Shown here: positions 1,146 to 33,366 of the stretch, piece after piece
How positions within the stretch are numbered: position 1 is the first letter of the stretch
How the letters are laid out: each line of letters begins with the position of its first letter
NCBI GenBank assembly: GCA_964526695.1
Contig: CAZGJA010000091.1
Coordinates: forward strand, 82,036-146,035
DNA: 64,000 nucleotides
Origin: an uncultured Phycisphaeraceae bacterium
GTDB taxonomy: Bacteria > Planctomycetota > Phycisphaerae > UBA1845
Direction: 5' to 3'
Made by a program: the position numbers and the translations under genes
Notes under the pieces: generated by a model
The model's input: the letters and a program-made list of their open reading frames with translations, nothing else
Databases searched by the model: none
What the model was told of the DNA's origin: nothing

Positions 1146-1254
1146 GGAGAAGCGCGGGACCGCCTCGACACCGCCCTCGCCTGCGAGCGCCTCCAGCGTG
1201 ATGCTGTCGGCGCGGCAGCGCAGCTCCAGTCGATCAGGAATCGGTTCGCTGACT

Positions 1255-9907: not shown

Positions 9908-10093
9908 TCATCCTATGACGCGCTCAATCGTCGTGACTCGGCGCCCGCAGTTCCGACATTCCCTGCGCCGCACAATCCGCCCTCCCACTCCCGAACGCGT
10001 GTAGGTCACATGGAAGTGTCCGCATCCACACTTCGGGCAACGCGGCCCGCGCTCGTTCGCCTGATTCGTAACTCCTCGCAGGCCCTCTTTCAT
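9908..10093 (-). CDS. Ogr/Delta-like C4 zinc-finger protein (61 aa)
   Basis: MKEGLRGVTNQANERGPRCPKCGCGHFHVTYTRSGVGGRIVRRRECRNCGRRVTTIERV. This is a CxxC-x22-CxxC zinc ribbon resembling P2 Ogr. The ATG at 10093..10091 overlaps the terminase TGA at 10092..10090 (ATGA coupling). Confidence 0.5.
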   Translation of the reverse strand: MKEGLRGVTNQANERGPRCPKCGCGHFHVTYTRSGVGGRIVRRRECRNCGRRVTTIERVIG

Positions 10094-12429
10094 CGCTTGG
10101 CCGCCTGAAGCTCGGACAGCCTGATCCTCACCCGCGGCGCAGGCCGCGCATCCATCCCGAACAGCATCGCCCCCTCCATCGACGCCGCCACGGCGCAACC
10201 GACCAGACAATCCAGCCAGTGGTTGTCCGCGCCGTCGAGGCGCAGCTTCCATTCATCCACCGTGCGGCCGCGGCCCTCCGTTTTCACGCGGTACTCGCTG
10301 GTCAGATGCTCGGCGACCAGGCGGTGGTCATCGGGATTGCGGCCGAAGAGCGACAGGCACCCCGGGTCGCCCATCGGCACAGCCAGCCGGGCGTGGACGA
10401 AGCTCTTCCAGAAGTTCGTATCGAAGAGCGCATGCCGGACGGACCGCCGGGCAGCAACGAGCGGGATGCGCCAGTTCAGCCCCACGCGGTCGCCGCGCTT
10501 GCGCTTGTAATCGGCAAAGGGAATCGACGACGCGCCGACGTAGCGGCCGTGGCTCGGCATGATGATGCCCGCGTGCTTGCTCTGCCGGCAGAACTGATAG
10601 ACCACGTCCGACGACTGGCCCCAGTTGGCGTCGATCAAACACCGATCGATCCGTACCATCGCCCCGTCGTCGCGCCGCCATTCACGACCGACCGTTCGGT
10701 CGCACAGCCGCTCCAGTCCCGCGTAGATCGCGCCTTCCATACCCGCACGCGGCACTGCGGACGCCAGCGTGTGACGCATGTCTCGCAGCGTAAAGTAGGC
10801 CGTCTGCTGATCGGGTTCGGTGCCGTAGTCGATGACGTGCCCGGTAAAGTCGTTCTCCCACGCGGCGATAAGCCAGAACAGCGCCTTGCCCTGCACGTCG
10901 ATGAACATCGTCACGTGCGTCGCGCCGATGGGGATCTCGCCGCGGCGCAGGCCGTTGACCTTCGCGGCGATCTGATCGGCGGTGAGCAGGTCCTCGTCGG
11001 CGTGCTCCTCGGGGAGCGGTTCGTTCTGATATTCCGCCCAGAACGCCACGTCGCCGCGATCCAGGCGCAGGTTCATCGCGTGCTGAATGGCGGACAGCTC
11101 GTCGGGATGGTGCCGCTGCGGCCAGGCGATGACCGCGCCGTCGTCCATCGCCGCGCGGTTCTCCGCGTAGAACTGCGTGGCCTCACCCATGCCACGATCG
11201 GCGCGCATCCCGTCGCGCCACAGCTCCGAATACCGCGCCCACAGCGCCTCGTTGGTGGGGAACGTGTACACCATCTTCGTCCGCTCGCCCTGCCACTGCG
11301 GGTGCTTGTCTCGGTCCAGGATGCGGTCGGCCAGGTCGGAAGGGCGAACCACCGTCAATGCCATCAACCCGGCGATTTTCCGCCCCGGACCAGCCAGGCC
11401 CAGGATCGCGCCGGCCAGAATGCGCTCGCGCGCCGCGCACTGCGACGGCGACCGCGCGGATTCATCCGTCTGCGGGTCGTCAATGAGCACCAGCGACGGG
11501 CGGACGGAGGACCCGTCCACCCGTTTGTGCTTCATCCCGCGGATGCGGCCAGTGATCCCCGACACGCAAATGATCGCGCCGGACGCGCGGCTCCCGGGCA
11601 TGGTGGGCAGCACGATCTCCTTGGCCGTCCAGCCGATGTGCGTCTGCTTGCCCTGGAAGAGCTGCCCTGCGGCGCGCTGGTGGATGCCCTCCAACGCCTG
11701 GATCGGGAAGCGGACCTCGGGAAAGTCGTCCAGCAGCAGGTCATTGGACTCCAGCTCGACCTTGATCGAGTCGAGCATGTTCTCCGCGTGGTCCTCGTCG
11801 CTGCCGATGAGCGCGATGAACTCGCGGTGCCCGTAGATCAGCGACCACAGGCAGGCCGTCTCACACAGGCTCGTCTTACCGCTGCCGCGCGGCATGGCCA
11901 TTGCGAACAGCCCGCCCTCCAGCACGGCCTTTTCGATCTTGCCGATCACCTTCAGGTGATCCGGCGACCACGGCAGGTGGAACGTGAGCGGGAAGTACCG
12001 CTCGCAGAAGAAGCGGAAGTCGCGTTCGGCCCGCGCCTTCCACTGCGGGTTGGCGATCGCCGGCAGCTCGCCGATGTCGCGCCCTGACAGTGACATCTGC
12101 TCGGCGCGCGCCCGGGCGCGCTCTTTCACCGCGTCGTAGCCGACCAACCCTTCGGGCTCGGGTCGCGGCCGATGCCGCTCGAGGACCAGCCACGCGACGT
12201 AGCGCAGCAGGTCCACAATCCTCCCGTCGCCGATGCGGAATCCCGCGCGTGAACGATGGCGGTGGAGCTGGCGCTCCGAGATGACCTCACCCAGCGGCGT
12301 GGAATTGAGCAGCCGCACGAGTTCGGTCGGTTTCAACTTGCGCGGGTCAATCGGCAGAATAATGCCCTCCACGAGCCCATTCGCGATACGATACGAGCCG
12401 AGTGAAGTCTGTTGTCGAGGGCGAAACAT
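10090..12429 (-). CDS. Phage terminase large subunit, GpA family
   Basis: 779 aa. The Walker A motif is AMPRGSGKTS. There is GpA-type ATPase/nuclease architecture (LIDDPQTDE; nuclease region IDVQGKALFWLIAAWENDF). Confidence 0.9.
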   Translation of the reverse strand: MFRPRQQTSLGSYRIANGLVEGIILPIDPRKLKPTELVRLLNSTPLGEVISERQLHRHRSRAGFRIGDGRIVDLLRYVAWLVLERHRPRPEPEGLVGYDAVKERARARAEQMSLSGRDIGELPAIANPQWKARAERDFRFFCERYFPLTFHLPWSPDHLKVIGKIEKAVLEGGLFAMAMPRGSGKTSLCETACLWSLIYGHREFIALIGSDEDHAENMLDSIKVELESNDLLLDDFPEVRFPIQALEGIHQRAAGQLFQGKQTHIGWTAKEIVLPTMPGSRASGAIICVSGITGRIRGMKHKRVDGSSVRPSLVLIDDPQTDESARSPSQCAARERILAGAILGLAGPGRKIAGLMALTVVRPSDLADRILDRDKHPQWQGERTKMVYTFPTNEALWARYSELWRDGMRADRGMGEATQFYAENRAAMDDGAVIAWPQRHHPDELSAIQHAMNLRLDRGDVAFWAEYQNEPLPEEHADEDLLTADQIAAKVNGLRRGEIPIGATHVTMFIDVQGKALFWLIAAWENDFTGHVIDYGTEPDQQTAYFTLRDMRHTLASAVPRAGMEGAIYAGLERLCDRTVGREWRRDDGAMVRIDRCLIDANWGQSSDVVYQFCRQSKHAGIIMPSHGRYVGASSIPFADYKRKRGDRVGLNWRIPLVAARRSVRHALFDTNFWKSFVHARLAVPMGDPGCLSLFGRNPDDHRLVAEHLTSEYRVKTEGRGRTVDEWKLRLDGADNHWLDCLVGCAVAASMEGAMLFGMDARPAPRVRIRLSELQAAKR

Positions 12430-12854: not shown

Positions 12855-13082
12855 TTACCCGGCACGATTGACCATCTCCTTGATCAGCCACGCCGCATAG
12901 TGGACCAGGTTCATCGACCCGTCCGCATTCGTGGGCGCTCCGACGACGACGTCGGCTTCGATCATCTCGACGTCCACGCGCTCCCCGCCGACGGCCGACA
13001 GCAGCCGCGCGGCGTCGGCCAGAGGCAGCGCCGTGGGATTCAGGCCGGGCCGGAAAGTTTCAGGCGGCGAGCCGTTGGCCAT
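12855..13082 (-). CDS. Nu1-like terminase small subunit, N-terminal wHTH-like, 75 aa
   Basis: From the internal ATG (13080..13082) with GGAGGA SD: MANGSPPETFRPGLNPTALPLADAARLLSAVGGERVDVEMIEADVVVGAPTNADGSMNLVHYAAWLIKE. The pattern resembles lambda Nu1 N-terminus (LADIFG...YDSAAVIKWY). Confidence 0.35.
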   Translation of the reverse strand: MANGSPPETFRPGLNPTALPLADAARLLSAVGGERVDVEMIEADVVVGAPTNADGSMNLVHYAAWLIKEMVNRAG

Positions 13083-13238
13083 TGCAGGTCCTCCACTGAA
13101 GGGGGCGAGGTCCGCCACGGGTACGCCCACGACGCGCTGCGGGCCCACGTGGGCCGCCCTGCGCGACGCGCGGCGGCCACGGGGCCAACCCGGCGTTGCC
13201 CATCGCGCCAGGGCCGCCCGGCGCGGTGTCACGCCTTT

Positions 13239-13270
13239 GACAGTTCAACCCAAACTTTATGCGAAAATAT
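13239..13270 (+). promoter_or_regulatory. Candidate early promoter (TTGACA -35) for the plus-strand small-gene block
   Basis: ttgacagttcaacccaaactttatgcgaaaatatc lies in a locally AT-richer divergent intergenic region between the Nu1-like gene and 13369. Confidence 0.3.
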
Positions 13271-13368
13271 CTTCCGAAAAAGCGGGGAAACGCTTCCCAT
13301 CTGCGAAAACCAAGCGTAAGGACATGCATGACGCGATCGCGATGGGGCGGCGCGAATGGAGACCAAAG

Positions 13369-13560
13369 ATGACAACGCAAACGATCGAACGACTGACGCG
13401 AGGCACGCGGGTGATCAACATCACCGACGGCGAACCGGGGACGATTGAAGGCGTCTGCACCTACCGCCGAGGCGGACGGGTGTGGTCCTACGCGGTGGTG
13501 ACCACCTACGGCCGCGAGGTCTGGGACGCGAGCGAGACGCTGGTGATCGAGCAGGAGTAA
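13369..13560 (+). CDS. Small hypothetical phage protein (63 aa)
   Basis: GGAGA SD 9 nt before the ATG. The sequence MTTQTIERLTRGTRVINITDGEPG... is the first gene of the plus-strand small-gene block. Confidence 0.4.
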   Translation: MTTQTIERLTRGTRVINITDGEPGTIEGVCTYRRGGRVWSYAVVTTYGREVWDASETLVIEQE

Positions 13561-13572
13561 AGGAGAACGAAC

Positions 13573-13938
13573 ATGAAGACGACGACCGACCCGAACACGA
13601 AGACGCCGGCGAGCAACCCAGACATGAAGAATTGGGAACTGCCGCTGCTGGCCAAGGCCCGCAGGTTCTACCAGGTCACCGTGACCGAGAACGCCGGCAA
13701 CGAGCCCGCCTTCCTGCGGGCCAAGCTCGTCCAGCACGGAGCGGAGGCCGCCGACGACGCCGCGCGACGCATCCACGGGCTGATCCGAACGCTCAACGAA
13801 GCCTACGAGCGGCTGATGAACGCGGGCACGATCGATGACGCCAAGAACGCGGTGTCCTGGCTGCGGACCGATGCCTGGGACACCGTGCAGCGCGACATCG
13901 CCACGCTGGACGCGATCAGCCAGGCGCTGCGGGCTTGA
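13573..13938 (+). CDS. Hypothetical phage protein (121 aa)
   Basis: AGGAGA SD before the ATG. Helical composition. Confidence 0.55.
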   Translation: MKTTTDPNTKTPASNPDMKNWELPLLAKARRFYQVTVTENAGNEPAFLRAKLVQHGAEAADDAARRIHGLIRTLNEAYERLMNAGTIDDAKNAVSWLRTDAWDTVQRDIATLDAISQALRA

Positions 13939-13971
13939 TGAATGACACGCCGAACCCAAGGAGATCGAAAG

Positions 13972-14169
13972 ATGACCACGACCCACGCAACGACCACGAC
14001 CCGGCTCAGCCGGATGGACACGATCCGACTTCAGAAGGTGCTCAAGAGCCTCGTAGCGGCGATGGACGTGCTGCAGCGCTGCGACGACCCCGCGCTGCGC
14101 GAGGCGGCGGATGACGAACTCATGGATGTCGCGGGGCGCTTCGAGATGCTCCTCGACGAGAACCGGTAA
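13972..14169 (+). CDS. Hypothetical small phage protein (65 aa)
   Basis: AAGGAG SD before the internal ATG at 13972 (ORF track start 13942). Confidence 0.45.
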   Translation: MTTTHATTTTRLSRMDTIRLQKVLKSLVAAMDVLQRCDDPALREAADDELMDVAGRFEMLLDENR

Positions 14170-14214
14170 CACGCGCTTCCGGGCCACGCACCCGGCAAGC
14201 CAGGAGATCGAACG

Positions 14215-14442
14215 ATGAAGGCTGCCGTTGCGATTCACTATGACGCGGGTTTGGAGCGCGAAGCGCTGGCCAAGGACATGGCCGACTGGATGGCCGCGGA
14301 GTTCATTCCGTTCAAGCGCGCCCAGCGCATCGAACGCCGCATCCGCACACAGGCCCGCATGACCGGCCTCAGCGTCGAGACCATTCGTGAAGACATCCGT
14401 AGCGACGCGCGCGCCATGCTGGCCGAGGAAGGCATCGAGTAA
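14215..14442 (+). CDS. Hypothetical small phage protein (75 aa)
   Basis: CAGGAGA SD. Tightly spaced tandem small genes. Confidence 0.5.
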   Translation: MKAAVAIHYDAGLEREALAKDMADWMAAEFIPFKRAQRIERRIRTQARMTGLSVETIREDIRSDARAMLAEEGIE

Positions 14443-14469
14443 CCCCGCAACCTTGAAGGAGACCGAAAG

Positions 14470-14712
14470 ATGACCACGAACGATACCCAAAAGACCGCGA
14501 TCGAAACCTACACCGCCCGCCGCGCGGACATCGTCCGGCTGATCGACGTGCTGGAGATGGAGCTCGGCAAGTACGACGAGCGCGCCCAGGCCGAGCCGCA
14601 GCGCTGGGATTTTCCCGGCACGCTCGACTACGTCCGCACCACGCTCATCGACCTGGTCGAAGGCCTGTCGGGCATCGAGCGCGGCGAGATCGAACAATTC
14701 CTCAGCGAATGA
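14470..14712 (+). CDS. Hypothetical small phage protein (80 aa)
   Basis: GAAGGAGA SD. Confidence 0.5.
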   Translation: MTTNDTQKTAIETYTARRADIVRLIDVLEMELGKYDERAQAEPQRWDFPGTLDYVRTTLIDLVEGLSGIERGEIEQFLSE

Positions 14713-14724
14713 AAGGAGCGACCT

Positions 14725-14955
14725 ATGAAGACGATGACGTTTGAAGCGATCGAGTTCGATTCGGCCCATGAGGCCATCCAGCACTACTACGCCAGCGGCC
14801 ACGGCGACCGGGTGATCCAACTCGGCGGCAAGGCCTACCTGACCACGGAGGCGGAGGCCGAGCGCCTCGCCGCGGCGGGCGTCGAGTTCGCCTACGTCTT
14901 CGACCACGACCTGCCCGACGGGCGCAACGTGATCATGACCGTGCCGGTGAACTGA
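14725..14955 (+). CDS. Hypothetical small phage protein (76 aa)
   Basis: AAAGGAG SD. Confidence 0.5.
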   Translation: MKTMTFEAIEFDSAHEAIQHYYASGHGDRVIQLGGKAYLTTEAEAERLAAAGVEFAYVFDHDLPDGRNVIMTVPVN

Positions 14956-15036
14956 CCGCGACCCGAACGCGAGCGCCCTACGGGGCGTCAGCGCCCGGGC
15001 CGCATGGGGCGGCTCGAGGTTGAAAGGAGGAACGCG

Positions 15037-16038
15037 ATGAAGAAGAACGCGGTTCACCTGAACGGGACGTACACCGCGAAGGTGAGTGGCAAGATCGTGC
15101 GTGTCCGCATCGATGCGGAAAGCCCGTACGGGGGCTGGGACGCCACCAACCTCGGCACGCGGAAGAAGATCCGTGTGAAGAGCGCCCAGCGCCTGCGGGC
15201 CGAGGTGGGCGGCACGACGCCGCCGGCGGGCCAAGGGAACGCCCCCGTGGCGAACGTGGCGAGGGACGAGGCCAAGCCGCCCAAGGCCTACGACCCGAAC
15301 CGCTGCGCCACGAGTCGGTGCAAGGGCGAGCCGGCGCTGACGTACCTCGGCAAGCCGCTGTGCCAGAGATGCTGGGACCGACACTGCGCGGAGGAACCGG
15401 CGAGCGCGATGGTCACCGAAGGCGCGGTGCCGCTCGCGGAGGGATTGAACACGTCGCCCGTTGCGGCGGCGAATGAGGCGTCCTGGGAGCGTGCGCTGCC
15501 GGGACCGGAAGATGGGGTGAACGAGGACGACGAACACGAGGACGACAAGGATGAGGACGCCGGCAACGCGCCGGCCAACACCGGCGATGCCGGAGAACTG
15601 GACACCGAAGACATGGCCACGAAGACGAAAAACAAGAAGAGCAAGGTCCGCAAGGGCGTGACGAAGACGACTGCGGCGCGCAAGCCCAAGGTCACGGCGG
15701 ACGCCAGGACGTCGCCCGCCAAGGGCGCGAGGCCCACGAAGTCCAAGGCCCAGCGGACGACGAAGGCCGCGCCGGCCAACGGCGACGGCAAGGCCAAGCG
15801 CGTCAGCGCCATCGACGCCGCGGCGGTGATCCTCAAGGACGCGGGCACGCCGATGCGCTCGCGCGAGATCATCGAAGCCGCCGCCTCCAAAGGTCTGTGG
15901 ACCAGCCCCGCGGGCAAGACGCCGCACGCAACGCTCGACGCGGCCATGCGCCGCGAGATCAACACCAAGGGCAAGGATGCGCGGTTCACGGTCGAAGGCC
16001 GAGGCCTGTTCGGCTTCAACGCCAAGGCGGGGGCGTAG
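15037..16038 (+). CDS. DNA-binding protein with N-terminal CxxC zinc ribbon, Lys-rich histone-H1-like linker and C-terminal HARE-HTH domain
   Basis: AAAGGAGG SD before ATG 15037. The C-terminus AIDAAAVILKDAGTPMRSREIIEAAASKGLWTSPAGKTPHATLDAAMRREI...FTVEGRGLFGF matches the HARE-HTH pattern. The linker is KTKNKKSKVRKGVTKTTAARKPKV. Confidence 0.55.
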   Translation: MKKNAVHLNGTYTAKVSGKIVRVRIDAESPYGGWDATNLGTRKKIRVKSAQRLRAEVGGTTPPAGQGNAPVANVARDEAKPPKAYDPNRCATSRCKGEPALTYLGKPLCQRCWDRHCAEEPASAMVTEGAVPLAEGLNTSPVAAANEASWERALPGPEDGVNEDDEHEDDKDEDAGNAPANTGDAGELDTEDMATKTKNKKSKVRKGVTKTTAARKPKVTADARTSPAKGARPTKSKAQRTTKAAPANGDGKAKRVSAIDAAAVILKDAGTPMRSREIIEAAASKGLWTSPAGKTPHATLDAAMRREINTKGKDARFTVEGRGLFGFNAKAGA

Positions 16039-16041
16039 GTC

Positions 16042-16440
16042 ATGACGACCGCACCGATCGACAACGCGCCGCCTCGGCAACGCGTGGATGTTTTCGAGGT
16101 CCTCGACGGATGTCTGGTGCGCCGGGTCGTCCCCCGCCGCGGCGAACCGTACGAGCATCGCTGTCCGCTGGAGACCTACCGCGAACTGACGTGGGCGGCG
16201 ATCGACCTGGCCGCCGACGGCTTCACCGTCGAGACGCTGGCGGATCAGGTCCGCAGCCGACCGATCGAGGAGCACGACGACCGCGAGCCGTGGGCGTCGT
16301 ACACCAACGCCGCCGTGGCCATCGCGTTCTGGAAGGAGCGCGGGATCGTCGAAACCCGCCGCCGCCGTAACTATGTGGACGACGGGTACTTCTTCGAGGA
16401 TTCGATGATCATGTACCACGCGCTGGCCGAAGGCGCCTGA
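16042..16440 (+). CDS. Hypothetical phage protein (132 aa)
   Basis: Starts 3 nt after the previous stop. Protein-like composition. Confidence 0.5.
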   Translation: MTTAPIDNAPPRQRVDVFEVLDGCLVRRVVPRRGEPYEHRCPLETYRELTWAAIDLAADGFTVETLADQVRSRPIEEHDDREPWASYTNAAVAIAFWKERGIVETRRRRNYVDDGYFFEDSMIMYHALAEGA

Positions 16441-16561
16441 CCTCACGTACCCGCCTCCGACACCTCGGCCGACACCGGGGTGTTTCTCCGGCAACAGAGC
16501 AAAAACCAGCGAGCGCGATATACTTGAGGCGGAGCGCCTGCACCTTCGGGGGAAAAGTCGA

Positions 16562-17056
16562 ATGCGCCGGACGACGATGCACCGAATCCTGAAGTGGACT
16601 GGGACAGCGTCTTGCGCGCTTATTCTGTTGGCAACAGTCGCTTGCCTAAGATGGTATGCCGTCGGCGTTGGATTTGGCCCACCGTTCGGCATCACTTTGA
16701 GCGGTGGGGCGGTCAACGTGTATGTCGAGCATGCACACCAGCCAGGGCCTCCACCGTGGACATCCCCGGAAGGTGTGATCTTCATCCATCGAGACAGTTT
16801 CCCCGCCCGTACTGCATGGTGGCAACTTGGAGTTGTTCCGAGCTTCATGGACAATTCGCATCTGTACGTGCTCCACGTCCCACTATGGATTCTGTTTCTG
16901 TTAGCCTGCATGCCGACAATCCGCCTCTGGCGCTCCGATCGCTACCGCTCCGGGCATTGCACTCAATGCGGCTACAATCTCTTTGGCAACGTCTCTGGAT
17001 GCTGCCCCGAATGCGGCACGCCCATTACGCCACACGCTTCATCCTCCGTTGCGTGA
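16562..17056 (+). CDS. Membrane protein with C-terminal CxxCGYNL-x8-CPECG zinc ribbon
   Basis: Two hydrophobic segments followed by HCTQCGYNLFGNVSGCCPECGTPIT. This is the same motif as the chromosomal ORF 49826..50728. Confidence 0.45.
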   Translation: MRRTTMHRILKWTGTASCALILLATVACLRWYAVGVGFGPPFGITLSGGAVNVYVEHAHQPGPPPWTSPEGVIFIHRDSFPARTAWWQLGVVPSFMDNSHLYVLHVPLWILFLLACMPTIRLWRSDRYRSGHCTQCGYNLFGNVSGCCPECGTPITPHASSSVA

Positions 17057-17201: not shown

Positions 17202-19430
17202 TCATCGCATGTTCTCCTCGCGGGGTTTCATGGAGATCGGCGAGGCGCCGGTGCGTTCCAGGACGGCGGGCTTGCCGGTGAAGCGCTGAAAGCGATCACA
17301 GATCACATCGCAGTAGAGCGGGTCGAGCTCCATCAAGAACGCCCGCCGTCCCGTCTGCTCGGCGGCGATCAGCGTGCTCCCCGAACCGCCGAAAAGGTCG
17401 AGCACGTTCTCGCCAGGCCGCGATGAATACTGCATCGCCCGCACCGAAAGTTCGGCAGGTTTCGCCGTCAAGTGTTCCATCTGCTGGGGGTTGATCTTCT
17501 TGACGTGCCAGAGGTCGGTCGCATTGTTCGGGCCGAGGTAGACGTGCGCCGCGCCCTCGCGCCAGCCGTAGAAACAATTGTGGGTTACGATGCCGTCCGC
17601 GACATAGTGCTCACCGATCGGCACGCCGAGGGAATAGACGTCTCCCGCGTGGTGTTGAACCTCGACGCTCTCGATCGGGCACCATTCGCTCCGCAACCGT
17701 GGCCTCTTGACCGGAACCAGCATCAGCCCGGGGATGAGGTTGCAGGCGCGCACCTGCATTCCCACCCGCCGCCCGAACTTGTCGCGCGTGTCGCCGATGC
17801 GGAGGATCGGATAGTGCGGGTGGCGTTGGAAGGCCGCGAGAGCCGCCAGTGCGCCCTCCTCCATGCGCCGCAGATCCAACTTCTCGTACAGGGCCGCGAT
17901 CTGGTCCGGCTGCCGCTGCTCCTTACGGGCCGGCCCGTAGCCAGGCTCCCAGTAGGTCGTCGGGATGCCGAACCGTACGGATACAGCCTGCTCTTGGACC
18001 ATCGCGTCCACATTGGACGCGTGGACGCTCAGGATCCATGCCTCCTCGGCCTTCTCCTTGGCCAGGCGCTGCTTCGGACCGAGCCCCCAGGTGGTGAGCA
18101 TCTTGGACTTGCCGACGCGCCACCAGTCCCCGCGGCGCATCAAGTAGACACACCACCAGTCCGCAAGGGCTTGGGAGAATCGTACGGTCCAGTGGTGGCC
18201 GGCCGTGCACCACGTGGCCTTCCCAGCGGCGCAGACGTTGTAGAGCAGGCCGTTGTAGACCCGGCTCGTCGCCATCACGGGTACGCCGCGTTTGGCCTGA
18301 AGGAAGTAACTGCGCGAGGCGTCAAACCCGACAACCCGGTCATGGGTCCTCATGGCCTCGATCGAGGAGTAGCCGTCAGCAGTCAAGACCTGCGTGCCGG
18401 CCGGCTGACACCACTCGTGGGCACCCATGAAATCCTTGCGCGTCAGGACCGGATGCTGCTTGTCCCAGATGATCGCCTGCGAAAAGTACAGCCCCACAGC
18501 CTTCAGCACCGGCGGGTAGTTGCCGCAGTTGGCGTAGCCGCCCCAGATGTAGAACCCGCGCCCGGGCAACAACACGCGCGCCATGTTGCCGAACCAGGCG
18601 AGGAGCATTTCGTCGAAGGCCTCGTCTGAAACGAAGTCGTTGAGCAGCGGCCGGTCCTTAGGGCGAAGCTGCGCGTGCGTGGCCTGCTTCGGTCCCTGAC
18701 GCGCCACATCGAAAGCCTGGTGATGATGCAGGCCCTTGTCGCCGCGCGCGGCATCGACGGCCTGGGTCAGATGCTGGTTCTTCATCAGAGAAAATGAACT
18801 GTTCCCTGCGGCAATCGCGTTGTTGCTGCGCGGCTCGACCTTCACGTTGTAGGGGGGGTCTGTATTTACCAAGTGGATCGGCGCGCCGTCGAGCAGCCGG
18901 TCCACGTCGGCCACGGACCCGCTATCACCACACATCAGTCTGTGCTCGCCGAGAATCCAGACGTCGCCGGGCTGGGTGACCGCTTCATCGGGCGGAGCCG
19001 GCACGTCGTCCGGATCAGTCAGACCCGCCTTGATCTCTCCGCCCATGAGCTTGGCCAGCTCGTCCTGATCGAACCCCAGCAGCGACCAGTCGATGCCGGC
19101 GCCCTGAAGGTCGGCCAGCTCAATCGGCAACAGCTCCAGATCCCACGTCGCCAGCTCGTTCGTTTTGTTGTCGGCGATGCGGTACGCGCGAATCTGCTCC
19201 GGCGTCAGATCCCGCGCGACATGCACCGGCACCTCGGTCAGCCCGAGCTTCTGCGCGGCCTTCCAGCGCGTGTGCCCGCAGATGATGACGCCTTCGCCAT
19301 CGATGACGATGGGCTGGCGGAACCCGAAGCGACGGATCGACTCTGCGACCGCGTCCACGGCGGCATCGTTGTCACGCGGGTTCTTGTCGTACGGTCTGAT
19401 CGATGAGAGCGGGCGCAGTTCTACCTGCAT
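17202..19430 (-). CDS. ParB-like nuclease domain fused to N4/N6 DNA methyltransferase, interrupted by an intein
   Basis: The start is the internal ATG at 19428..19430 (GGGAGG SD), giving MQVELRPLSSIRPYDKNPRDNDAAVDAVAESIRRFGFRQPIVI (ParB N-domain). Methyltransferase motifs are NTDPPYN, SQAIIWDK, HEW/CFYGW and LDLFGGSGST. The Hint domain lies between HEW and CFYGW. Confidence 0.85.
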   Translation of the reverse strand: MQVELRPLSSIRPYDKNPRDNDAAVDAVAESIRRFGFRQPIVIDGEGVIICGHTRWKAAQKLGLTEVPVHVARDLTPEQIRAYRIADNKTNELATWDLELLPIELADLQGAGIDWSLLGFDQDELAKLMGGEIKAGLTDPDDVPAPPDEAVTQPGDVWILGEHRLMCGDSGSVADVDRLLDGAPIHLVNTDPPYNVKVEPRSNNAIAAGNSSFSLMKNQHLTQAVDAARGDKGLHHHQAFDVARQGPKQATHAQLRPKDRPLLNDFVSDEAFDEMLLAWFGNMARVLLPGRGFYIWGGYANCGNYPPVLKAVGLYFSQAIIWDKQHPVLTRKDFMGAHEWCQPAGTQVLTADGYSSIEAMRTHDRVVGFDASRSYFLQAKRGVPVMATSRVYNGLLYNVCAAGKATWCTAGHHWTVRFSQALADWWCVYLMRRGDWWRVGKSKMLTTWGLGPKQRLAKEKAEEAWILSVHASNVDAMVQEQAVSVRFGIPTTYWEPGYGPARKEQRQPDQIAALYEKLDLRRMEEGALAALAAFQRHPHYPILRIGDTRDKFGRRVGMQVRACNLIPGLMLVPVKRPRLRSEWCPIESVEVQHHAGDVYSLGVPIGEHYVADGIVTHNCFYGWREGAAHVYLGPNNATDLWHVKKINPQQMEHLTAKPAELSVRAMQYSSRPGENVLDLFGGSGSTLIAAEQTGRRAFLMELDPLYCDVICDRFQRFTGKPAVLERTGASPISMKPREENMR
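17577..18410 (-). other. Intein (278 aa) within the methyltransferase gene
   Basis: Begins with Cys (tgt at 18408..18410) as CQPAGTQVLTADGYS. Block B is TAGHHW. Block F/G is DVYSLGVPIGEHYVADGIVTHN, followed by +1 Cys. Extein junctions reconstitute the conserved methyltransferase HEW-CFYGW region. Confidence 0.75.
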
Positions 19431-20018
19431 GTTGGACCTCCCTGTCCGGAGCGCATCATGTTCCCAACGGCCACGGTATCGCGGCCATCTGCGATTCAAC
19501 CCCAACCGGGGGAATTCCGGTTTTCCCGGAACGGCCACGGCTGGCCTCTGGGGCGTCCGTGCCGAGCCGCGTACGCACGGCCAACCCGCGGCCCGCGTCG
19601 CCCCAGGGCGGCCCGGATCGCGTCGTGGGGCCTCCTGGGCCGGCGAAGCACCCAACCAAAAGCGGACAGGGGGTTGTCCGGTCGTAACTCTTTATTCCCT
19701 CGCGTCTTATGGAAAAACCGGACAGCCGAAAGAAAGTCATTCGATAAGCAGCGCTGTTCCCGCTGGCATTTTCGCAGTATTACTTCACGAAGGAACCATT
19801 GCTTACTCGCGCACAACTCGTGCGAGAGGTTCAAGGGGAGTCGGCGACCAACTTTAGAATCGGTTCCATGCTAACGCTTGCGAGCACGTGTCTCCCGACG
19901 TGAGCCAATGACTGATGGCCCGCCAGCCCTTGGGCCGTGAGCTCCCGTTCGTGTAGAATTCCCCCTAGGCGTGGGCCCGCCGGAGGCGCCTTCGGACCGG
20001 AAGGAGGAGAGCTAACAG

Positions 20019-22346
20019 ATGGCTCGTCAACGTTGTGATCGACCAGGATTGTGGGCTTGGCTTTGGTTTGTCACTCTTGCCTTCGCGATTGACGGTTCTA
20101 GTCGCGCTTCACCATCGGATTGCTTCACCTGGGTCGAGGCCACTCCGGGTCCTCGTCCCAGACGGGAACACGCGACCGCGTTCGATACGAATCGAGAGGT
20201 TTTGGTCCTCTTCGGCGGGTGGGATGGTGACGTTAGTGGCGAGACCTGGGAGTACGACGGAACCTCCTGGGCGCTACGATCGACCACCGGGCCTTCCCCA
20301 CGGCGCTTTCACGGGATGGCCTTCGATTCCAACCGCGGCGTCACAGTACTCTTCGGTGGATCGAATGCCGCCGGCGGACGTAATAGCGAGACCTGGGAAT
20401 GGAACGGAGAGTCTTGGAGCCTCGCCTCTTCCACTGGACCTTCACCGCGCGACAAGCATGCGATGGCTTACGATTCACAACGTAGCGTAACCGTGCTAAC
20501 CGGTGGACACGACGGGGAGACGAATCGGGAAACATGGGAGTGGGACGGAGAATCGTGGATCCTCCGTGCGACCGATGGAATTGACCCCGTCCGGGAGCAT
20601 GCGATGGCTTACGATAGTCGGCGAGCTGTCGTCGTACTCTATGGAGGACGAAGCAGCGGCTATTACCAGCACACGCTTGAATGGGACGGCAGTCGATGGC
20701 ACCTCCGCACATTCGATGGGCCGAACAGTCGCGCCAATCACACGATGACTTTTGACCAGGAACGAGGAGTTACTGTCCTCTTTGGTGGAGAGGTGCAAAG
20801 CAGGCGACTAGGTGATACTTGGGAATGGGACGGCGAGACCTGGCGACGAGTGGCCGAAGAAGGTCCAACACCTCGGCGATCGGCTTCAATGTCTTACGAC
20901 TCCGCGCGCCGACAATGCCTGTTATTTGGTGGTTTTGACGGAAACGACTCCGGAGAAACTTGGGCGTGGCGCGGTGAGCAATGGTCCCTCGATCATTCCT
21001 CGGGTCCACCGTCCCGTTATGGCGCTGCAATTGCCTATGACGAGTCTGCTGAGGTATCCGTTTTGATGGGTGGCGGTACGGCCACCCGGGTGCTTTCCGA
21101 CACTTGGGTCTGGAACGGCGTGGTCTGGAGACAAGCAGTCCAGAACGGACCCTTCGAACGCATATACCCCGAGATGGCGTATGACTCTTGGCGCTCCCGT
21201 GTTGTCCTATTCGGCGGGCGTGATGGGTCCTCACAGGACAAAGCTGAAACGTGGGAATGGGACAATTCGGAGTGGACATTTCGGACAACGTCCGGACCGT
21301 CGGCGCGCTACGATCACGCGATGGCGTTCGACAATCGTCGAAGAGTGACGGTGTTGTTCGGCGGCAACGTTGGCGGTCGTGAAACATGGGAGTGGGATGG
21401 GAATGATTGGTTGCGTGTGGCTACAACAGGTCCATCAGCGCGCCGTGGTCATGCCATGGCCTTTGATGAGCGTCGAGCTGTGACTGTCCTGTATGGAGGG
21501 AACTTCAGCTCACGAGAAACGTGGGAATGGAATGGCAGTCAATGGCATCTGGCCTCCAGCAGCGGACCGACCCCGCGTATCGATCACACGATGGCCTATG
21601 ATCGTGACCGCGAGGTCGTGATGCTCTTCGGCGGAAATGACGGGGGATTCGACAACGAGACGTGGGAATGGGATGGAGAAGTCTGGCGGCGACGAACAGG
21701 GCCCAGTCCGGACGGCAGACGCAGTCCGATCATGGCCTACGACTCCGGCCGTCGTCATCTCGTCCTCTACGGCGGGCTCAAAGAGTCCGGGGACACGGCA
21801 GGTGATACCTGGGAATCGAGTAGCCTTGCCGGGCCCGAGTTTCAGGAACATCCCGTTGATGTGCAGAGCGATCCCGGAGATGATGTCGTGCTGAAGGGAT
21901 CGGCTTTCGGCGCTGAAGATTATCGGTGGACAAAAAATGGAGTCGACGTCGTTGATGGCGATCGCATCATCGGATCCAGAACGCCGATTCTGACGCTTCT
22001 CAATGTCGAGCCAGGTGACGGAGGTCGCTACGCTCTTCGCGCGTCAAATGAATGCGATACGTCGACCAGCCACGACGCTCTCGTATGGGTCGGCGACGTA
22101 GCCTGCGAAGACATCCATCGCCTTTCGGCCAGATGTCATCGCGAGAAAGTTGTCGTCACGGTTTTTCTAAATTCTCTCGCCTTTGACGGCCAGTCGGTCG
22201 TTGTCGCAGCGGGTGAGTTCAAACGCACGCTGCAGATCATAGGCAACAGGGCGCGCGGAAAGTTAAAGAATCCAGAAACGTTCGACTCCATTTCAATCTA
22301 CACCCCTGCCGACTGTGGGATTGAAACAACAGTCGATTGTGAGTGA
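20019..22346 (+). CDS. Secreted Kelch-repeat beta-propeller protein with C-terminal Ig-like domain (775 aa)
   Basis: GGAAGGAGGAG SD. The signal peptide is MARQRCDRPGLWAWLWFVTLAFAIDGSSRA. There are at least 12 repeats of the form FGG...ETWEWDG..W. The Ig-like segment is VLKGSAFGAEDYRWTKNG...GRYALRASNECDTS. Confidence 0.8.
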   Translation: MARQRCDRPGLWAWLWFVTLAFAIDGSSRASPSDCFTWVEATPGPRPRREHATAFDTNREVLVLFGGWDGDVSGETWEYDGTSWALRSTTGPSPRRFHGMAFDSNRGVTVLFGGSNAAGGRNSETWEWNGESWSLASSTGPSPRDKHAMAYDSQRSVTVLTGGHDGETNRETWEWDGESWILRATDGIDPVREHAMAYDSRRAVVVLYGGRSSGYYQHTLEWDGSRWHLRTFDGPNSRANHTMTFDQERGVTVLFGGEVQSRRLGDTWEWDGETWRRVAEEGPTPRRSASMSYDSARRQCLLFGGFDGNDSGETWAWRGEQWSLDHSSGPPSRYGAAIAYDESAEVSVLMGGGTATRVLSDTWVWNGVVWRQAVQNGPFERIYPEMAYDSWRSRVVLFGGRDGSSQDKAETWEWDNSEWTFRTTSGPSARYDHAMAFDNRRRVTVLFGGNVGGRETWEWDGNDWLRVATTGPSARRGHAMAFDERRAVTVLYGGNFSSRETWEWNGSQWHLASSSGPTPRIDHTMAYDRDREVVMLFGGNDGGFDNETWEWDGEVWRRRTGPSPDGRRSPIMAYDSGRRHLVLYGGLKESGDTAGDTWESSSLAGPEFQEHPVDVQSDPGDDVVLKGSAFGAEDYRWTKNGVDVVDGDRIIGSRTPILTLLNVEPGDGGRYALRASNECDTSTSHDALVWVGDVACEDIHRLSARCHREKVVVTVFLNSLAFDGQSVVVAAGEFKRTLQIIGNRARGKLKNPETFDSISIYTPADCGIETTVDCE

Positions 22347-22794: not shown

Positions 22795-22880
22795 GGAGAA
22801 AGAGAGAAAGAAGAAGAGAAGTAGTAGTATTTATATATATTTTCATGCATTCTTCTTTCACTGTTCCTTCACCTTCCTTC
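22795..22880. promoter_or_regulatory. AT-rich purine/pyrimidine mirror-palindrome island in the convergent intergenic space next to the primase 3' end
   Basis: gagaaagagagaaagaagaagagaag-tagtagtatttatatatattttcatgcatt-cttctttcactgttccttcaccttccttcc. The GA-rich arm is complementary to the TC-rich arm around an AT-rich core. The surrounding DNA is about 68% GC. Confidence 0.5.
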
Positions 22881-25292
22881 CACGCCTTCGCTCTCCAGCC
22901 GGTACAGCGTGCGGGGCCGCCCCTCGGTCGCCAGGGCGTCGATCGCCACGTCGCCGCGCTGGACGAGCGTCTCGATCAGCTCGCGGAAGCTCTTGGCGTC
23001 AATCTTCATGCGTTTGAGCAGTACGTGGTGCGGGAGGGTCCGGTCCGGGGCATCCCGCAGCTTCTTGAGCAGCCGCAGGCAATGGGCATGGAACGGGTTG
23101 TCGGCCACGTGGCCGGCGGCCTGGTACAGCATCCGCCGGACCTGATGGGTGACCAGCCGTGAGGCCCAGCGGGCGGCCTGCGCGCCGATGCGCGGCTCGC
23201 GGTGGTTCTCACTGACGGCGTAGACCAGGGCGAGCTTGCGGGCCTGCTCGCTGACGCGACCCCAAACCGTGGTGCTAACGGCGTCCTGGGCGGACTGGGC
23301 CCTGTTGTACTCGGCGTCAGCTTCCTCACGGGTTTCGGCAAGCAACCGTCGCGCGTCCTCCGAATGCTCGACGACGGCCGGCGATGGATGAGATTCCGCC
23401 AGATTCCCGGCGCCGGCCCGGAACTCCGCCCACCATTTCGCGGTATCGAGGATGCGCGAGGGCAGCTCGCGGATCGACGATTCCTGACCGCGGCGCTGCT
23501 GACCGGCCTCCAGGATGAGCATGCGGGCGAAGAAGCCGTTGGTCAGCATCCGCTCGGAGAGGGCCTCGTAATAGTGGTTGGGGATGGCCGTACCGAAGAG
23601 GACCAGGCACGGCTGGTCGATGACGCCGGGGTAGTCCTTGCCGGCCTTGCGGCGCATGGGGTAGACGCTGTTCGATGAGGAATACAGCGTCAGCAGCGTG
23701 CTCATCATGGTCTCGTAGCGGGCGTCGCGGGCCTTGTTGATCGACTGCAGGATGCCGTCGATCTCGTCGGTCTGCACGAGCATGGCCGGATCGGCGAACA
23801 GCGCGTCCTGGACGGCCTCGCCCGAGGCCATGCGCTCGCCGAGGCATCGTGTACAGCCCACGGCGTTGAGGATCTGTGTGTTGACTTTCCGCGGCGCATC
23901 CTTGCCGGCCGAGGAATGGGCCAGGGCCAGGACGTAGATGTTGGTCCGATTGTCGCCGGGGTCGCGCACCTTGCGCCCGGCCAGGAACGCCTGCAGCGCC
24001 AGCGCGCCGCCGAACGCCAGGGCTTGATTCGGGTACGGGGCGCTCTCTAGGCAGTAGTCCATCACCTCGCCGATGAAGCCGGGAATCCGCAGAAGCTCGT
24101 TGGGAATCGGCCCGGGATCGGGAGGCTGGATGTCTCCGGGGCCGGCCGGCGCATCGCGCGGTCGGACGCTGAAGCTGGACAGATCTACGTCACCGGAGTC
24201 GACGGGCGGCGGCTCCCAGCCCGGGTCCAGCGCTTTCCGAAGATCATGCCACGTGTACGCCTGCCCGCGGCTGTGCTTGTTGCAGTAGGCCAGCTTGCCG
24301 TTGTTGCCAATAAGAACGGCGATGTCGGAGCCGCCCGTGGAGACGATCTCGGGATCGATCGGGCAGCGTTCGAGTAGAAGCAGCGTCTTGTTTCCGTTGC
24401 GGCGCTCGCCCTTGACAGCCACGCCGCGTCCTTCGAGCCAGGCCCGCACGCCTGCGGGAGTGCAATCGAAACGAGCAGCGTCACTGGCGGGCACGACCGA
24501 GGCCCGTGGTGCGTCGGCGTGGACCCTTGCGGTTTCGGCTACGGTTCGTAGCAGATCTTCAGGCACGACAGCGAGCGTGCCGGGAATGTCGATGAATTCG
24601 GATCGCCGATGCGGACGGTCCTCAAGGCCGGCGACACCGCGCAGCTCATCCCCCTTGCGCGCCGTGGTTCCGACGATCTTGACGATCCGCGCCGCGTTAT
24701 GAACGGAACGATCGACTGCCACATGGCCGTCGCTGAAGCGATCGGCGAGCGCCGCCAGGATGGCCTTCACCAGGCCGCCGTCATCGGCAGGAAGGTTGAT
24801 GCGATAAAGAAGGTGAAAGCCGTTCCCCGACATCACCTGGAGGGGATCGGGCCAACCGATCGATCGCAGGTGGTCTGAGACGCAGCGGGCGCGCTCGTGC
24901 GCCTGCGCCAACTCAGCTTCCGTGGAGCTGATGCCGGCGGGCCGGACCGGGTCCACGTCGATGAGCAGCCAGCGCCGCAGGACGACGTCCTTGTCCGAGG
25001 TGGTCTCGCGGACCCTGGACTTTATACGGTTCGCGGCGCGAGCCAACAGCGCCGGGGCGACGGGGCTCATCGTCACGTACATACCCGGCGCGATCCTCGA
25101 CTGATCCAATTCGGCAATCGCGGCGACGGCTGCATCCAGGGTTTCGTGAGTGAAATACCCACTGCACGTAACGGCGTAGCGCGCATCCTTGCGTTCGCGG
25201 CATTCCGGCGCGCGAACCTCGAACACGTCCCCCGGCTGAAACAGCAGGGAGAGGAAGGCGCGGATCGCAGAGGTATCCCCGGAGTGCTTCAT
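22869..25292 (-). CDS. Phage replication primase-polymerase (Prim-Pol N-domain) with DUF3987-like helicase-associated C-domain
   Basis: LLIDVD and VMSGNGFHLLYRIN motifs are present. The large C-terminal region contains a P-loop-like segment. ATGA overlap with the upstream helicase. Confidence 0.75.
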   Translation of the reverse strand: MKHSGDTSAIRAFLSLLFQPGDVFEVRAPECRERKDARYAVTCSGYFTHETLDAAVAAIAELDQSRIAPGMYVTMSPVAPALLARAANRIKSRVRETTSDKDVVLRRWLLIDVDPVRPAGISSTEAELAQAHERARCVSDHLRSIGWPDPLQVMSGNGFHLLYRINLPADDGGLVKAILAALADRFSDGHVAVDRSVHNAARIVKIVGTTARKGDELRGVAGLEDRPHRRSEFIDIPGTLAVVPEDLLRTVAETARVHADAPRASVVPASDAARFDCTPAGVRAWLEGRGVAVKGERRNGNKTLLLLERCPIDPEIVSTGGSDIAVLIGNNGKLAYCNKHSRGQAYTWHDLRKALDPGWEPPPVDSGDVDLSSFSVRPRDAPAGPGDIQPPDPGPIPNELLRIPGFIGEVMDYCLESAPYPNQALAFGGALALQAFLAGRKVRDPGDNRTNIYVLALAHSSAGKDAPRKVNTQILNAVGCTRCLGERMASGEAVQDALFADPAMLVQTDEIDGILQSINKARDARYETMMSTLLTLYSSSNSVYPMRRKAGKDYPGVIDQPCLVLFGTAIPNHYYEALSERMLTNGFFARMLILEAGQQRRGQESSIRELPSRILDTAKWWAEFRAGAGNLAESHPSPAVVEHSEDARRLLAETREEADAEYNRAQSAQDAVSTTVWGRVSEQARKLALVYAVSENHREPRIGAQAARWASRLVTHQVRRMLYQAAGHVADNPFHAHCLRLLKKLRDAPDRTLPHHVLLKRMKIDAKSFRELIETLVQRGDVAIDALATEGRPRTLYRLESEGVEGR

Positions 25293-26968
25293 CAGAATGG
25301 ACAGTCGTCCGGACGGACGGACGCCGGTGCTGGAACTTGTTCCTCCTCCGAATCCGGGCGAGGGGGTTTCTCGCCCAACCGATAGGCCACAACGTGGTCG
25401 AACTTCTCGCCGGGCTTATGCTCGACGGTCACGCTGAGCGTGAGCGCCACGGCACCGGCATGCGAGAAATCGACGGCGTCCTGGGCGGTTGCGGGTATCG
25501 GGTCGGGCGACCGAGCGCGCCACCAATGCTCGGCCTTCTGGCGCGCGAAGCCTTCGTGCTCGAAACACACCCATTCGCTGACGTACTCATTGAACCCGAC
25601 GCGGTAGTCCACGCGCATCGTCCGCGGCGCATCCGTCGGCGCGCCGCGCTTTGTGTGGACGCTGTAGAACACATCAGTGACTTCGTGCTCGGTGCGCGTA
25701 ATCTGGTCGGAGAGGATGCCTTCGGAAGACGCGGTGGATGCGTGCTTCTCGCGCTCGCGCGGTGGGAACGCGTGCCCGCACGCCGGACAGGTTGTGTAGC
25801 CCGCGGCGATCAGCTCGAGACATTGGGGGCATTCCTTGGCTGGGGCATCGCCGTTGCCGCTGTAATTAGATTCGGTGACGCGCATCGCATCGACGGGCCC
25901 GTGACGCAGGACGTTTCCGCCGAAGTCAAGGACCAGGGCATCGGTTTTGCCCGGGTGCAACCGGAACCCACGCCCAACCATCTGGTAGAAGAGACCCGGC
26001 GACATCGTCGGACGCACCAGCGCCACGCAGTCGATGTTTGGCGCGTCGAACCCCGTCGTCAGCACGTTGACGTTGCACAAGTACTTCAGCTCGCCGCCGC
26101 GGAATCGCTTCAGCGTCACATCACGTTCGAACGGTAACGTCTCGCCGCAAACAAACCCGCACTCCAGGCCGTGACGCTCACCCAATACGCGGCAGATATG
26201 CTCGCCGTGGCGCACGCCGCTGGCGAAAATCAGCACGGACCTGCGGTCCTGCGTGTGCTCGATGATCTCGCGGCAGGCGCCCAGGACGAGGTTGTCGTCG
26301 TCCATGAGCTGCTCGACCTCATTGGCCATGAACTCGCCGGCGCGGACGTGGAGCCGGTCGGTGTCGGGCTTGAGGCTGCCGGCCTTGGTGCGCAGCGGGC
26401 ACAGGTAGCCCTGTACGATGAGCTCGCGGACGCTGATCTCGTAACAGATGTGGTTAAGGACGTTGTCCGGCGCGCAGATGGTGCCGGACTTCATGCGGAA
26501 CGGTGTCGCCGTCAGGCCGACCACACGCACGTTGGGGTTGATGACCTTCAGATCCGCCAGCAGCGTGCGATACATTCCTTCGCCATCGGGCGCAATGAGA
26601 TGGGCCTCGTCGACGAGGATCAGGTCGACAGGCCCGACGTCGCAGGACTTCTCGTACACGGACTGAATGCCAGCGATGGTGACCGCGTAGCCTAGATCCC
26701 GGCGCTTCAGCCCCGCAGAATAGATGCCCAAGGGCAGATCGGGCGCGGTGGCGCGCAGCTTCTCCTCGGCCTGCTCCAGCAGCTCCTTCACGTGCGCCAG
26801 GATAAGCACCCGCCCGTTCCAGACCTGCACCGCGTCGCGGCAGATCGTAGCCATCACCGGCGTCTTGCCGCCGGCGGTGGGGATGACGACGCAGGGGTTG
26901 TCGTCGCGCTCGCGCAGGTGCGCGTACACCGCATCGACAGCCTCACGTTGATAGGGTCGGAGGATCAA
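25292..26968 (-). CDS. DEAH-box SF2 helicase with C-terminal zinc ribbon
   Basis: Helicase motifs YQREAV, PTAGGKT, DEAH, TATP and QMVGRGFR. Zinc ribbon CPQCLELIAAGYTTCPACGH. Confidence 0.85.
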   Translation of the reverse strand: MILRPYQREAVDAVYAHLRERDDNPCVVIPTAGGKTPVMATICRDAVQVWNGRVLILAHVKELLEQAEEKLRATAPDLPLGIYSAGLKRRDLGYAVTIAGIQSVYEKSCDVGPVDLILVDEAHLIAPDGEGMYRTLLADLKVINPNVRVVGLTATPFRMKSGTICAPDNVLNHICYEISVRELIVQGYLCPLRTKAGSLKPDTDRLHVRAGEFMANEVEQLMDDDNLVLGACREIIEHTQDRRSVLIFASGVRHGEHICRVLGERHGLECGFVCGETLPFERDVTLKRFRGGELKYLCNVNVLTTGFDAPNIDCVALVRPTMSPGLFYQMVGRGFRLHPGKTDALVLDFGGNVLRHGPVDAMRVTESNYSGNGDAPAKECPQCLELIAAGYTTCPACGHAFPPREREKHASTASSEGILSDQITRTEHEVTDVFYSVHTKRGAPTDAPRTMRVDYRVGFNEYVSEWVCFEHEGFARQKAEHWWRARSPDPIPATAQDAVDFSHAGAVALTLSVTVEHKPGEKFDHVVAYRLGEKPPRPDSEEEQVPAPASVRPDDCPF

Positions 26969-33087: not shown

Positions 33088-33198
33088 GAGTCGAATCTCC
33101 GAAAAGGGGAGCGCGCTCCCCCAATTTTCGAGCGATTCGCCACATCGGCCTTGAAGGCAGGTTGACGCAACGTGCGTCACTGGCGTGAGTTACAACAC

Positions 33199-33271
<73 letters not shown>

Positions 33272-33366
33272 AAGGATAAGAGCGGGGCAGTTTAGCAGGG
33301 CGGGCGGCGGTTTCAAGCGCCGGCGATGGAGAAAGCAACCGTCGGATCCGTGGCACTTTTGGCGGC

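Follow-up and report, generated by a model that had tools for sequence, protein, structure and literature searches.

A class 1 intein in a prophage ParB-methyltransferase gene and its conserved nested domain, a candidate GIY-YIG-type homing endonuclease

The methyltransferase gene and its intervening element

We analysed a 64,000-nucleotide stretch of DNA from an uncultured Phycisphaeraceae bacterium (contig CAZGJA010000091.1; hereafter the window), in which a prophage gene for a DNA methyltransferase is interrupted by an in-frame element of 278 residues. The gene occupies 17202..19430 on the minus strand and encodes a precursor of 742 residues (82.9 kDa). Its ATG start codon lies at 19430, with GGAGG 6 nt upstream, and translation ends at the stop codon 17202..17204. 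The stop-to-stop open reading frame (ORF) around it, 17202..19655, is longer than the gene read from this ATG; the N-terminus that the ATG gives, MQVELRPL..., agrees with that of the orthologs. The precursor is organised as follows.

19170..19412, minus strand: ParB N-terminal domain, residues 7-87 (PF02195, E 4.4e-8; PHROG 620; matches to Spo0J, Noc and ParB in the PDB)
18411..19430, minus strand: N-extein, residues 1-340, ending ...FMGAHEW, collinear with intein-free orthologs
18849..18860, minus strand: methyltransferase motif IV, DPPY, residues 191-194, read from the sequence
17577..18410, minus strand: intein, residues 341-618, 278 residues, 31.3 kDa, assigned to class 1 (Cys1 ... His-Asn, then Cys+1) from motifs, profiles, fold and intein-free orthologs
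18177..18410, minus strand: N-terminal half of the Hint domain, intein residues 1-78, with blocks A and B (conserved Thr and His in the family alignment; beta-strands in an AlphaFold2 (AF2) model; Hint_2 matches in relatives)
17763..18176, minus strand: nested middle domain, intein residues 79-216, 138 residues, placed after block B and before block F; a probable GIY-YIG-like homing endonuclease (AF2 model and family conservation)
17577..17762, minus strand: C-terminal half of the Hint domain, intein residues 217-278, with blocks F/G, ...DVYSLGVPIGEHYVADGIVTHN (TIGR01443; PF14890, E 0.003, profile positions 117-155)
17202..17576, minus strand: C-extein, residues 619-742 and the stop codon, beginning with Cys+1 in CFYGWREGAAH..., collinear with intein-free orthologs (PF01555 stretch at residues 636-710)
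17373..17393, minus strand: methyltransferase motif I, FGGSGST, residues 680-686, binding S-adenosylmethionine (AdoMet), read from the sequence and aligned to solved beta-class methyltransferases

The precursor matched PF01555 (N6_N4_Mtase; 81.3 bits in two stretches) and PF02195 (ParB_N; 33.5 bits), both above cut-off, as well as PHROG 498 (DNA methyltransferase, 1.4e-121) and PHROG 620 (ParB-like, 1.2e-51). Its relatives in the PDB are RsrI, MboIIA, CcrM and similar solved beta-class enzymes, and because motif IV precedes motif I, the motif order is that of the beta class. These matches support the prediction that the gene product is a ParB_N-fused beta-class N6/N4 DNA methyltransferase with an intein inside it. 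Both the ParB fusion and the enzyme class had been read correctly in the original prediction, which a model had made from the letters of the sequence.

The original prediction had also placed a 278-residue intein at residues 341..618 of this reading frame, an assignment that profiles, the predicted fold and an exact gap in orthologs now bear out. Block A, CQPAGTQVLTADG, begins at residue 341, and the TGT codon of Cys341 is found at 18408..18410, precisely where it had been predicted. Block B, correctly picked out as TAGHHW, provides the T-x-x-H motif (18195..18206), T409 and H412 of the precursor (T69 and H72 of the intein), each column of which is at least 90% conserved in homologs. At the other end, blocks F/G close with the predicted ...VADGIVTHN, which stops at Asn618 (17577..17579), with Cys619 (17574..17576) directly after it. 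Removal of the intein joins ...MGAHEW to CFYGWREGAAH, the junction that had been proposed.

Alignment with intein-free homologs agreed with this junction. With the spliced extein as query, we recovered, after the window protein itself, more than 100 orthologs among the matches listed, of 427-491 residues and 74-85% identical over approximately their full length. These intein-free orthologs contain ParB_N and N6_N4_Mtase, and the names attached to them are mostly Phycisphaerae or Planctomycetota. When nine of them (78-88% identity) were aligned to the precursor, the gap comprised exactly residues 341-618 and HEW[C/A/S]FYGW ran unbroken across the site in all nine. In the DNA flanking the intein, 68 of 90 positions are the same as in an intein-free allele; one such allele, on contig L001, reads ...GGTGCCCACGAATGG^GCATTCTATGGATGG... 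around the insertion point (here and below, ^ marks the point of insertion). The +1 residue varies among the closest intein-free orthologs, one of which lies at L001 10001..11350: it is Ala in two (P0067 and P0068) and Ser in a third (P0069). If invaded, an allele with Ala at +1 would be unable to support splicing.

Profile and fold searches pointed in the same direction. The C-terminal splicing region of inteins as modelled by NCBIfam TIGR01443 was matched by the element at 30.8 bits, where the cut-off is 15.6. An AF2 model of the intein, built on the family alignment, reached a predicted local distance difference test score (pLDDT) of 92.4, and the top 50 Foldseek matches of this model in the PDB were all inteins, Hint (Hedgehog) domains or bacterial intein-like (BIL) domains, with a best E of 2e-6. 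A sequence search of the PDB with the intein found no match. Two outcomes had been named in advance as telling against an intein, namely that the 278 residues form a fixed insertion in homologs and that profile matches are missing. Neither was found, as there are orthologs without the element and both profile and fold matches are present; the element is therefore almost certainly a true intein, of class 1. We also considered class 3, which is ruled out by the presence of Cys1 and the lack of a Cys in block F, the WCT of TWCTAGHH being a coincidence inside block B.

Hosts and distribution of the intein family

A search with the 278-residue element returned 65 relatives, most of which lie in PF01555 methyltransferases at 45-52% identity and the remainder in UvrD/PcrA-like helicases and other proteins. 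The family alignment keeps Cys1, T-x-x-H, the block F/G region, the terminal His-Asn and a +1 Cys or Ser. In a Pfam scan of the family, Intein_splicing (E<=1, best 2.5e-7) was matched in 35 of 37 members and Hint_2, at the N-terminus, in 14 of 37. A hidden Markov model (HMM) of the whole intein was scanned over 143 cluster representatives that carry the nested domain. This yielded 155 full-length intein copies, some proteins containing two or three. Position 1 is Cys in 154 of the copies, the +1 residue is Ser or Cys in 154, and the pattern C ... HN^S/C is complete in 125.

The family occupies approximately 15 insertion sites in all, spread over several host proteins, which are mainly UvrD-like superfamily 1 (SF1) helicases together with two methyltransferase subfamilies and one portal-like protein. 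Sites in the helicases include GDxxQ^[S/C]IYGFRGA, VGTIH^SVKGGEAD, SVKGGEAD^CVY and HNPYR^S, and inteins also occupy one and the same site in divergent methyltransferases. Between hosts, intein identity is only 46-51%, compared with an extein identity of 68-96%; this gap fits either faster evolution of the intein or its exchange between hosts.

Many of the UvrD-like helicases (P0211, P0189-P0200 and others) carry two or three inteins of the family at different motifs, and in one of them (P0211) two inteins stand in direct tandem (...ITHN^CHPPGT...). Inteins of the CQP type (proteins P0189-P0331) were found both in methyltransferases, at the site C-F-Y-G-W-K/R-x-G, and in helicases, at motif III (S/C-I-Y-G-F/W-R-G-A), two sites with strikingly similar C-exteins, and those of the CSP type occupy helicase sites other than motif III. 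The likeness of the C-exteins at the methyltransferase and motif III sites may have enabled host switching. In several members (P0002, P0004, P0009 and P0019) gene callers often start the gene at the Met of ...FMGAHEW^C, which drops the N-extein and makes the product look like a 'hypothetical protein' of approximately 400 residues, an annotation artefact of the intein.

The family includes an intein already on record, that of the UvrD-like helicases SPO1 gp34.33 and CampHawk gp172 of two Bacillus phages (GenBank FJ230960 and KF669649), which tblastn aligned with the window's intein at 34% identity over 100% of its 278 residues (E 6e-38). As in the window, the intein is of similar length (275 residues), starts with CQPAG..., ends with ...VTHN and resides in a phage DNA-metabolism gene; it also contains the same nested domain, recognisable by VYLM, RVG, R, W and E. 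It differs in its site, which is GDDDQ^SMYSFRGA in helicase motif III with Ser at +1, and in its carrier, a low-GC lytic myovirus, unlike the prophage of the window. The SPO1 and CampHawk records and the CampHawk announcement say just 'intein' and make no mention of an endonuclease.

In Streptococcus suis prophages (phiD12, Javan558, phi-SsuSH0918 and others), ParB-methyltransferases contain an intein that belongs to the same family (38.9% identity, full coverage, E 2e-62). It lies at the homologous site of a protein with ParB_N and PF01555 domains, ...QWQHEP^CQPAGT...VTHN^CLYGWK. The methyltransferase subfamily is nevertheless a different one, with HEP and CLYGW instead of the HEW and CFYGW of the window, and the host is a Firmicute. 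This intein is unannotated in 15 prophage records (for example within 625..2736 of Streptococcus phage phi-SsuSH0918_comEC, our L059), where the gene is labelled 'adenine-specific methyltransferase' or 'ParB-like nuclease'.

Inteins with LAGLIDADG endonucleases have been described in phage PF01555 methylases of actinophages (PMC9957025; bioRxiv 10.1101/2025.01.02.630785), among them a 327-residue intein of the Dorothy_75 family (Gosselin et al. 2023, PMC9957025). The latter resembles the window's intein in that it interrupts a conserved part of an orphan phage PF01555-type methylase and is patchily distributed among close homologs. It differs in its LAGLIDADG endonuclease, and the comparison gave no evidence of a common intein family or insertion site. 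The window element is thus a further copy of an existing intein family, in a type of host gene known to harbour inteins.

The nested middle domain and its relation to GIY-YIG nucleases

Between the two halves of the Hint domain lies the nested domain of 138 residues. Modelled alone, it gave a pLDDT of 91.4 and showed a beta-beta-alpha-beta-alpha core followed by two helices. Across 217 copies, Y429, M431, R438, G440, R455, W465, E480 and P541 are invariant (Y89, M91, R98, G100, R115, W125, E140 and P201 in intein numbering), and E459 (intein E119), four positions after R455, is conserved in 91%. The window copy retains all of the conserved residues. The original prediction had noted that the middle region lacks LAGLIDADG and HNH motifs, and this held, as we found neither a motif nor a profile match of either kind in the nested domain (Pfam, NCBIfam). 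Its further suggestion of a degenerate or linker domain did not hold, since the domain is strongly conserved and, according to the model, confidently folded; it is neither degenerate nor a mere linker.

We searched 1.84 billion representative proteins with a profile of the nested domain and retrieved 1,733 cluster representatives at E<=1e-3, 1,332 of them at E<=1e-10. The domain is also present in 54 IMG/VR viral contigs. In all 143 representatives checked, and in 23 weaker viral loci with full-length inteins in long ORFs, the domain lies inside an intein; a free-standing copy was found neither among the best 150 of the 1,733 representatives nor in the 23 weaker viral loci.

Structural comparison suggested a candidate function for this domain. 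Among the 12 PDB folds nearest to the model, 9 are GIY-YIG nucleases, including three SLX1 structures (scores of 5.0, 4.9 and 4.7), the GIY-YIG domain of UvrC (4.6), the catalytic domain of I-TevI (4.6), Eco29kI (3.9), T4 EndoII (3.8) and UPF0213 EF2693 (3.6). The model has the three-stranded beta-sheet and flanking helices of the GIY-YIG core. The hallmarks of this superfamily have been defined as GIY, YIG, Arg and Glu (PMC1564403), and we compared them with the nested domain by their order and secondary-structure element, not by residue-level superposition. On this basis, the Tyr of the GIY motif in beta1 corresponds to the Tyr of V-Y429-L, which is present in 100% of the 217 copies, and the Arg of the first helix and the Glu of the second correspond to R455 and E480, both 100% conserved. 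The position four residues after the Arg is E459 here and His in I-TevI and UPF0213. Fold prediction of the central region was one of the checks originally proposed: the model is confident and GIY-YIG-like by its nearest folds, while Foldseek gave no match.

Several observations weigh against a GIY-YIG assignment. The YIG motif is not preserved; its counterpart in beta2 is R438-V-G440, in which the Gly is invariant and the position of the Tyr is taken by an invariant Arg. No equivalent of the conserved GIY-YIG Asn was identified in the nested domain. A Foldseek search of the PDB with the domain model had a best E of 1.4, and searches of the PDB with HMM profiles built from 25 and 47 domain sequences gave chance matches or none, with no GIY-YIG protein among them. 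Nor did hhalign comparisons with UPF0213/YhbQ GIY-YIG alignments of 3 and 121 sequences reach significance (Prob 0.5-2.4%, P 0.02-0.13), the template being a single GIY-YIG branch with a profile that is shallow because its homologs are mostly enterobacterial YhbQ; the best local alignment, likewise not significant, lines up the Tyr, Gly and Glu as expected. Searches of Pfam, NCBIfam, PHROGs and PADLOC returned no family for the domain. Compared with known GIY-YIG nucleases (I-TevI, SLX1/URI, the UvrC N-domain, PD-T4-3, Eco29kI and T4 EndoII), it is not significantly similar in sequence or profile, has Arg in place of the second Tyr, contains an additional hairpin between beta2 and alpha1, and is always nested in an intein where this was checked.

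The main rival to a GIY-YIG-type nuclease is a splicing intein whose nested domain is not a nuclease and has a DNA-binding, structural or splicing-regulating role, the intein being passed on by vertical descent or moved, either in trans by a different endonuclease or through ordinary phage recombination. The domain has no sequence-profile link to any nuclease family, and this, the negative Foldseek result, the non-significant hhalign comparisons and the missing second Tyr and Asn are all in keeping with it. It is also favoured by the composition of the intein, which is fully ameliorated to that of the exteins (GC content 0.656 versus 0.64; GC at third codon positions, GC3, 0.85 versus 0.83), and by the distance of its closest relative, which is only 52% identical. 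Because its GC and GC3 equal those of the exteins and no relative is closer than 52%, the intein shows no sign of a very recent invasion, which also counts against the preferred explanation. However, strict invariance of Y, R, G, R, W and E over 217 copies, approximately 15 sites and several hosts is typical of a catalytic site, not of a linker, and the domain occupies the exact position in which inteins carry homing endonucleases. Moreover, the family has spread repeatedly to new conserved sites, close orthologs differ in whether they carry it, and three quarters of the nearest folds (9 of 12) are GIY-YIG nucleases. We therefore regard a non-nuclease module as less likely, albeit the strongest of the alternatives, and on balance lean towards reading the nested domain, from its model, as GIY-YIG-like and a nuclease of the GIY-YIG type.

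A more specific proposal is that the nested domain represents an undescribed, intein-only clade of GIY-YIG-type homing endonucleases, characterised by Tyr, Arg-x-Gly, Arg and Glu, with a preference for C-exteins of the form x-[FIL]-Y-G-[WF]-[RK]-x-G; taken with this preference, we give it about an even chance. An enzyme with such a preference may account for jumps between helicase motif III and the HEx site of methyltransferases. A survey from 2006 stated that GIY-YIG enzymes are not found in inteins (PMC1564403), and a recent preprint describes inteins with LAGLIDADG, HNH, VSR-like/EDxHD and EndoVII-like endonucleases, naming GIY-YIG in a general list only (bioRxiv 10.1101/2025.01.02.630785). 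In an incomplete library of the literature we found no paper on a GIY-YIG domain nested in an intein; as far as this search reached, the nature of the nested domain has not been described before.

Proposed mechanism, prophage setting and meaning

Considered as a whole, the locus is best explained, with good though not full confidence, as a class 1 intein in a prophage ParB_N-methyltransferase whose nested domain is likely a divergent homing endonuclease of the GIY-YIG type. From the motifs and models we infer splicing, nuclease activity and homing as follows. The 82.9-kDa precursor would be translated, and the Hint domain (intein residues 1-78 and 217-278) would then carry out the standard four steps: an N-S acyl shift at Cys341, trans-thioesterification to Cys619, cyclisation of Asn618 assisted by His617, and an S-N shift. 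The predicted products are the 31.3-kDa intein and a methyltransferase of 464 residues (51.5 kDa) in which the conserved ...HEW-CFYGW... is restored. The nested domain would cut target alleles that lack the intein, and recombinational repair would copy the intein in; cuts made by GIY-YIG enzymes usually have 2-nt 3' overhangs.

Two further readings question the element itself. The 278 residues could be a non-splicing insertion or a BIL domain that is retained, or that cleaves without ligating its flanks. The best Foldseek match (E 2e-6) is indeed a BIL2 domain (6y75), and splicing is known here as a prediction from sequence and model. The Pfam Intein_splicing profile (PF14890) scored 17.7 bits, below its gathering score of 35.8, with only the C-terminal part matched at E 0.003; the nested domain splits the model. 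In addition, block F has Ser at position 4, where Asp is common. These points tell against an intein, but the insertion breaks a motif that is conserved in all orthologs and whose flanks rejoin perfectly, Cys+1 is present, and of 155 copies in the family, 154 have Ser or Cys at +1 and 125 end in His-Asn. TIGR01443 is above its cut-off, the SPO1 and CampHawk members are annotated as inteins, and the great majority of the other Foldseek matches are true inteins, all of which makes a non-splicing insertion very improbable. That the middle region is the remnant of a decayed LAGLIDADG or HNH endonuclease, on the way to a mini-intein, would agree with the lack of an endonuclease motif recognisable by eye and of a Pfam match, but is effectively refuted by the confident fold, the invariant polar residues, the 1,332 cluster representatives at E<=1e-10 and the lack of an alternative-frame or antisense endonuclease ORF in the intein, and is the least probable of the three.

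Antisense or alternative-frame endonuclease ORFs have been reported in some actinophage inteins. None was found in this intein: its long antisense ORFs have no Pfam match and are typical of high-GC DNA. One of 385 residues (17472..18629, plus strand) overlaps the intein gene, and another of 1,283 residues (13060..16911, minus strand) is antisense to real genes. Since neither has a family match and both fit the high-GC composition, we do not regard them as genes.

The surroundings of the gene are those of a prophage, in keeping with the phage origin originally proposed. A tRNA-Lys(CTT) (33198..33272, minus strand) abuts a tyrosine integrase (31855..33180, minus strand) and marks one prophage end; to its right, past 33.3 kb, lie genes of cellular appearance, for an M14 peptidase, a Wzy_C protein and an SPFH protein. 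Leftward from the integrase lie a DUF3799 PD-(D/E)XK protein, an AAA_24 protein, a helicase (25292..26968) and a primase (22869..25292), then the ParB-methyltransferase, a HARE-HTH protein and a gpA-type large terminase (10090..12429). The contig of an intein-free ortholog that is 88% identical (P0068) has a matching gene order and carries portal and capsid genes. This neighbourhood and the syntenic phage contig justify the label of a phage methyltransferase. Between the primase and the methyltransferase, on the opposite strand, is an ORF of 775 residues with Kelch repeats and an Ig domain (20019..22346, plus strand), which looks like a moron-type insertion because the intein-free phage contig L001 has just a gap of approximately 430 bp there. 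Just left of the terminase, a protein of 1,892 residues with FG-GAP/VCBS repeats and Laminin_G_3 (4148..9826, plus strand) may be a fibre or adhesin of the phage, or else the product of a cellular gene.

The intein of the window is in itself an ordinary selfish element, and its main relevance is to annotation: the enzyme is one of 464 residues, not 742, and gene callers often split genes that contain inteins. The copy nevertheless belongs to a very large phage-borne family whose conserved nested domain lacks an entry in the four family collections searched. If the domain is indeed of the GIY-YIG type, it would constitute a new nuclease class for inteins, and the SPO1-gp34.33 family, which spans phage helicases, methyltransferases and portal-like proteins in at least 1,700 protein clusters, would be the first documented inteins with an in-frame GIY-YIG nuclease. 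Such an enzyme would offer a compact, possibly modular scaffold for site-specific nucleases. Because SPO1, a tractable phage of Bacillus subtilis, carries a member of the family, the hypothesis is directly testable; if true, it would help to account for the movement of inteins from one conserved motif to another across different DNA enzymes.

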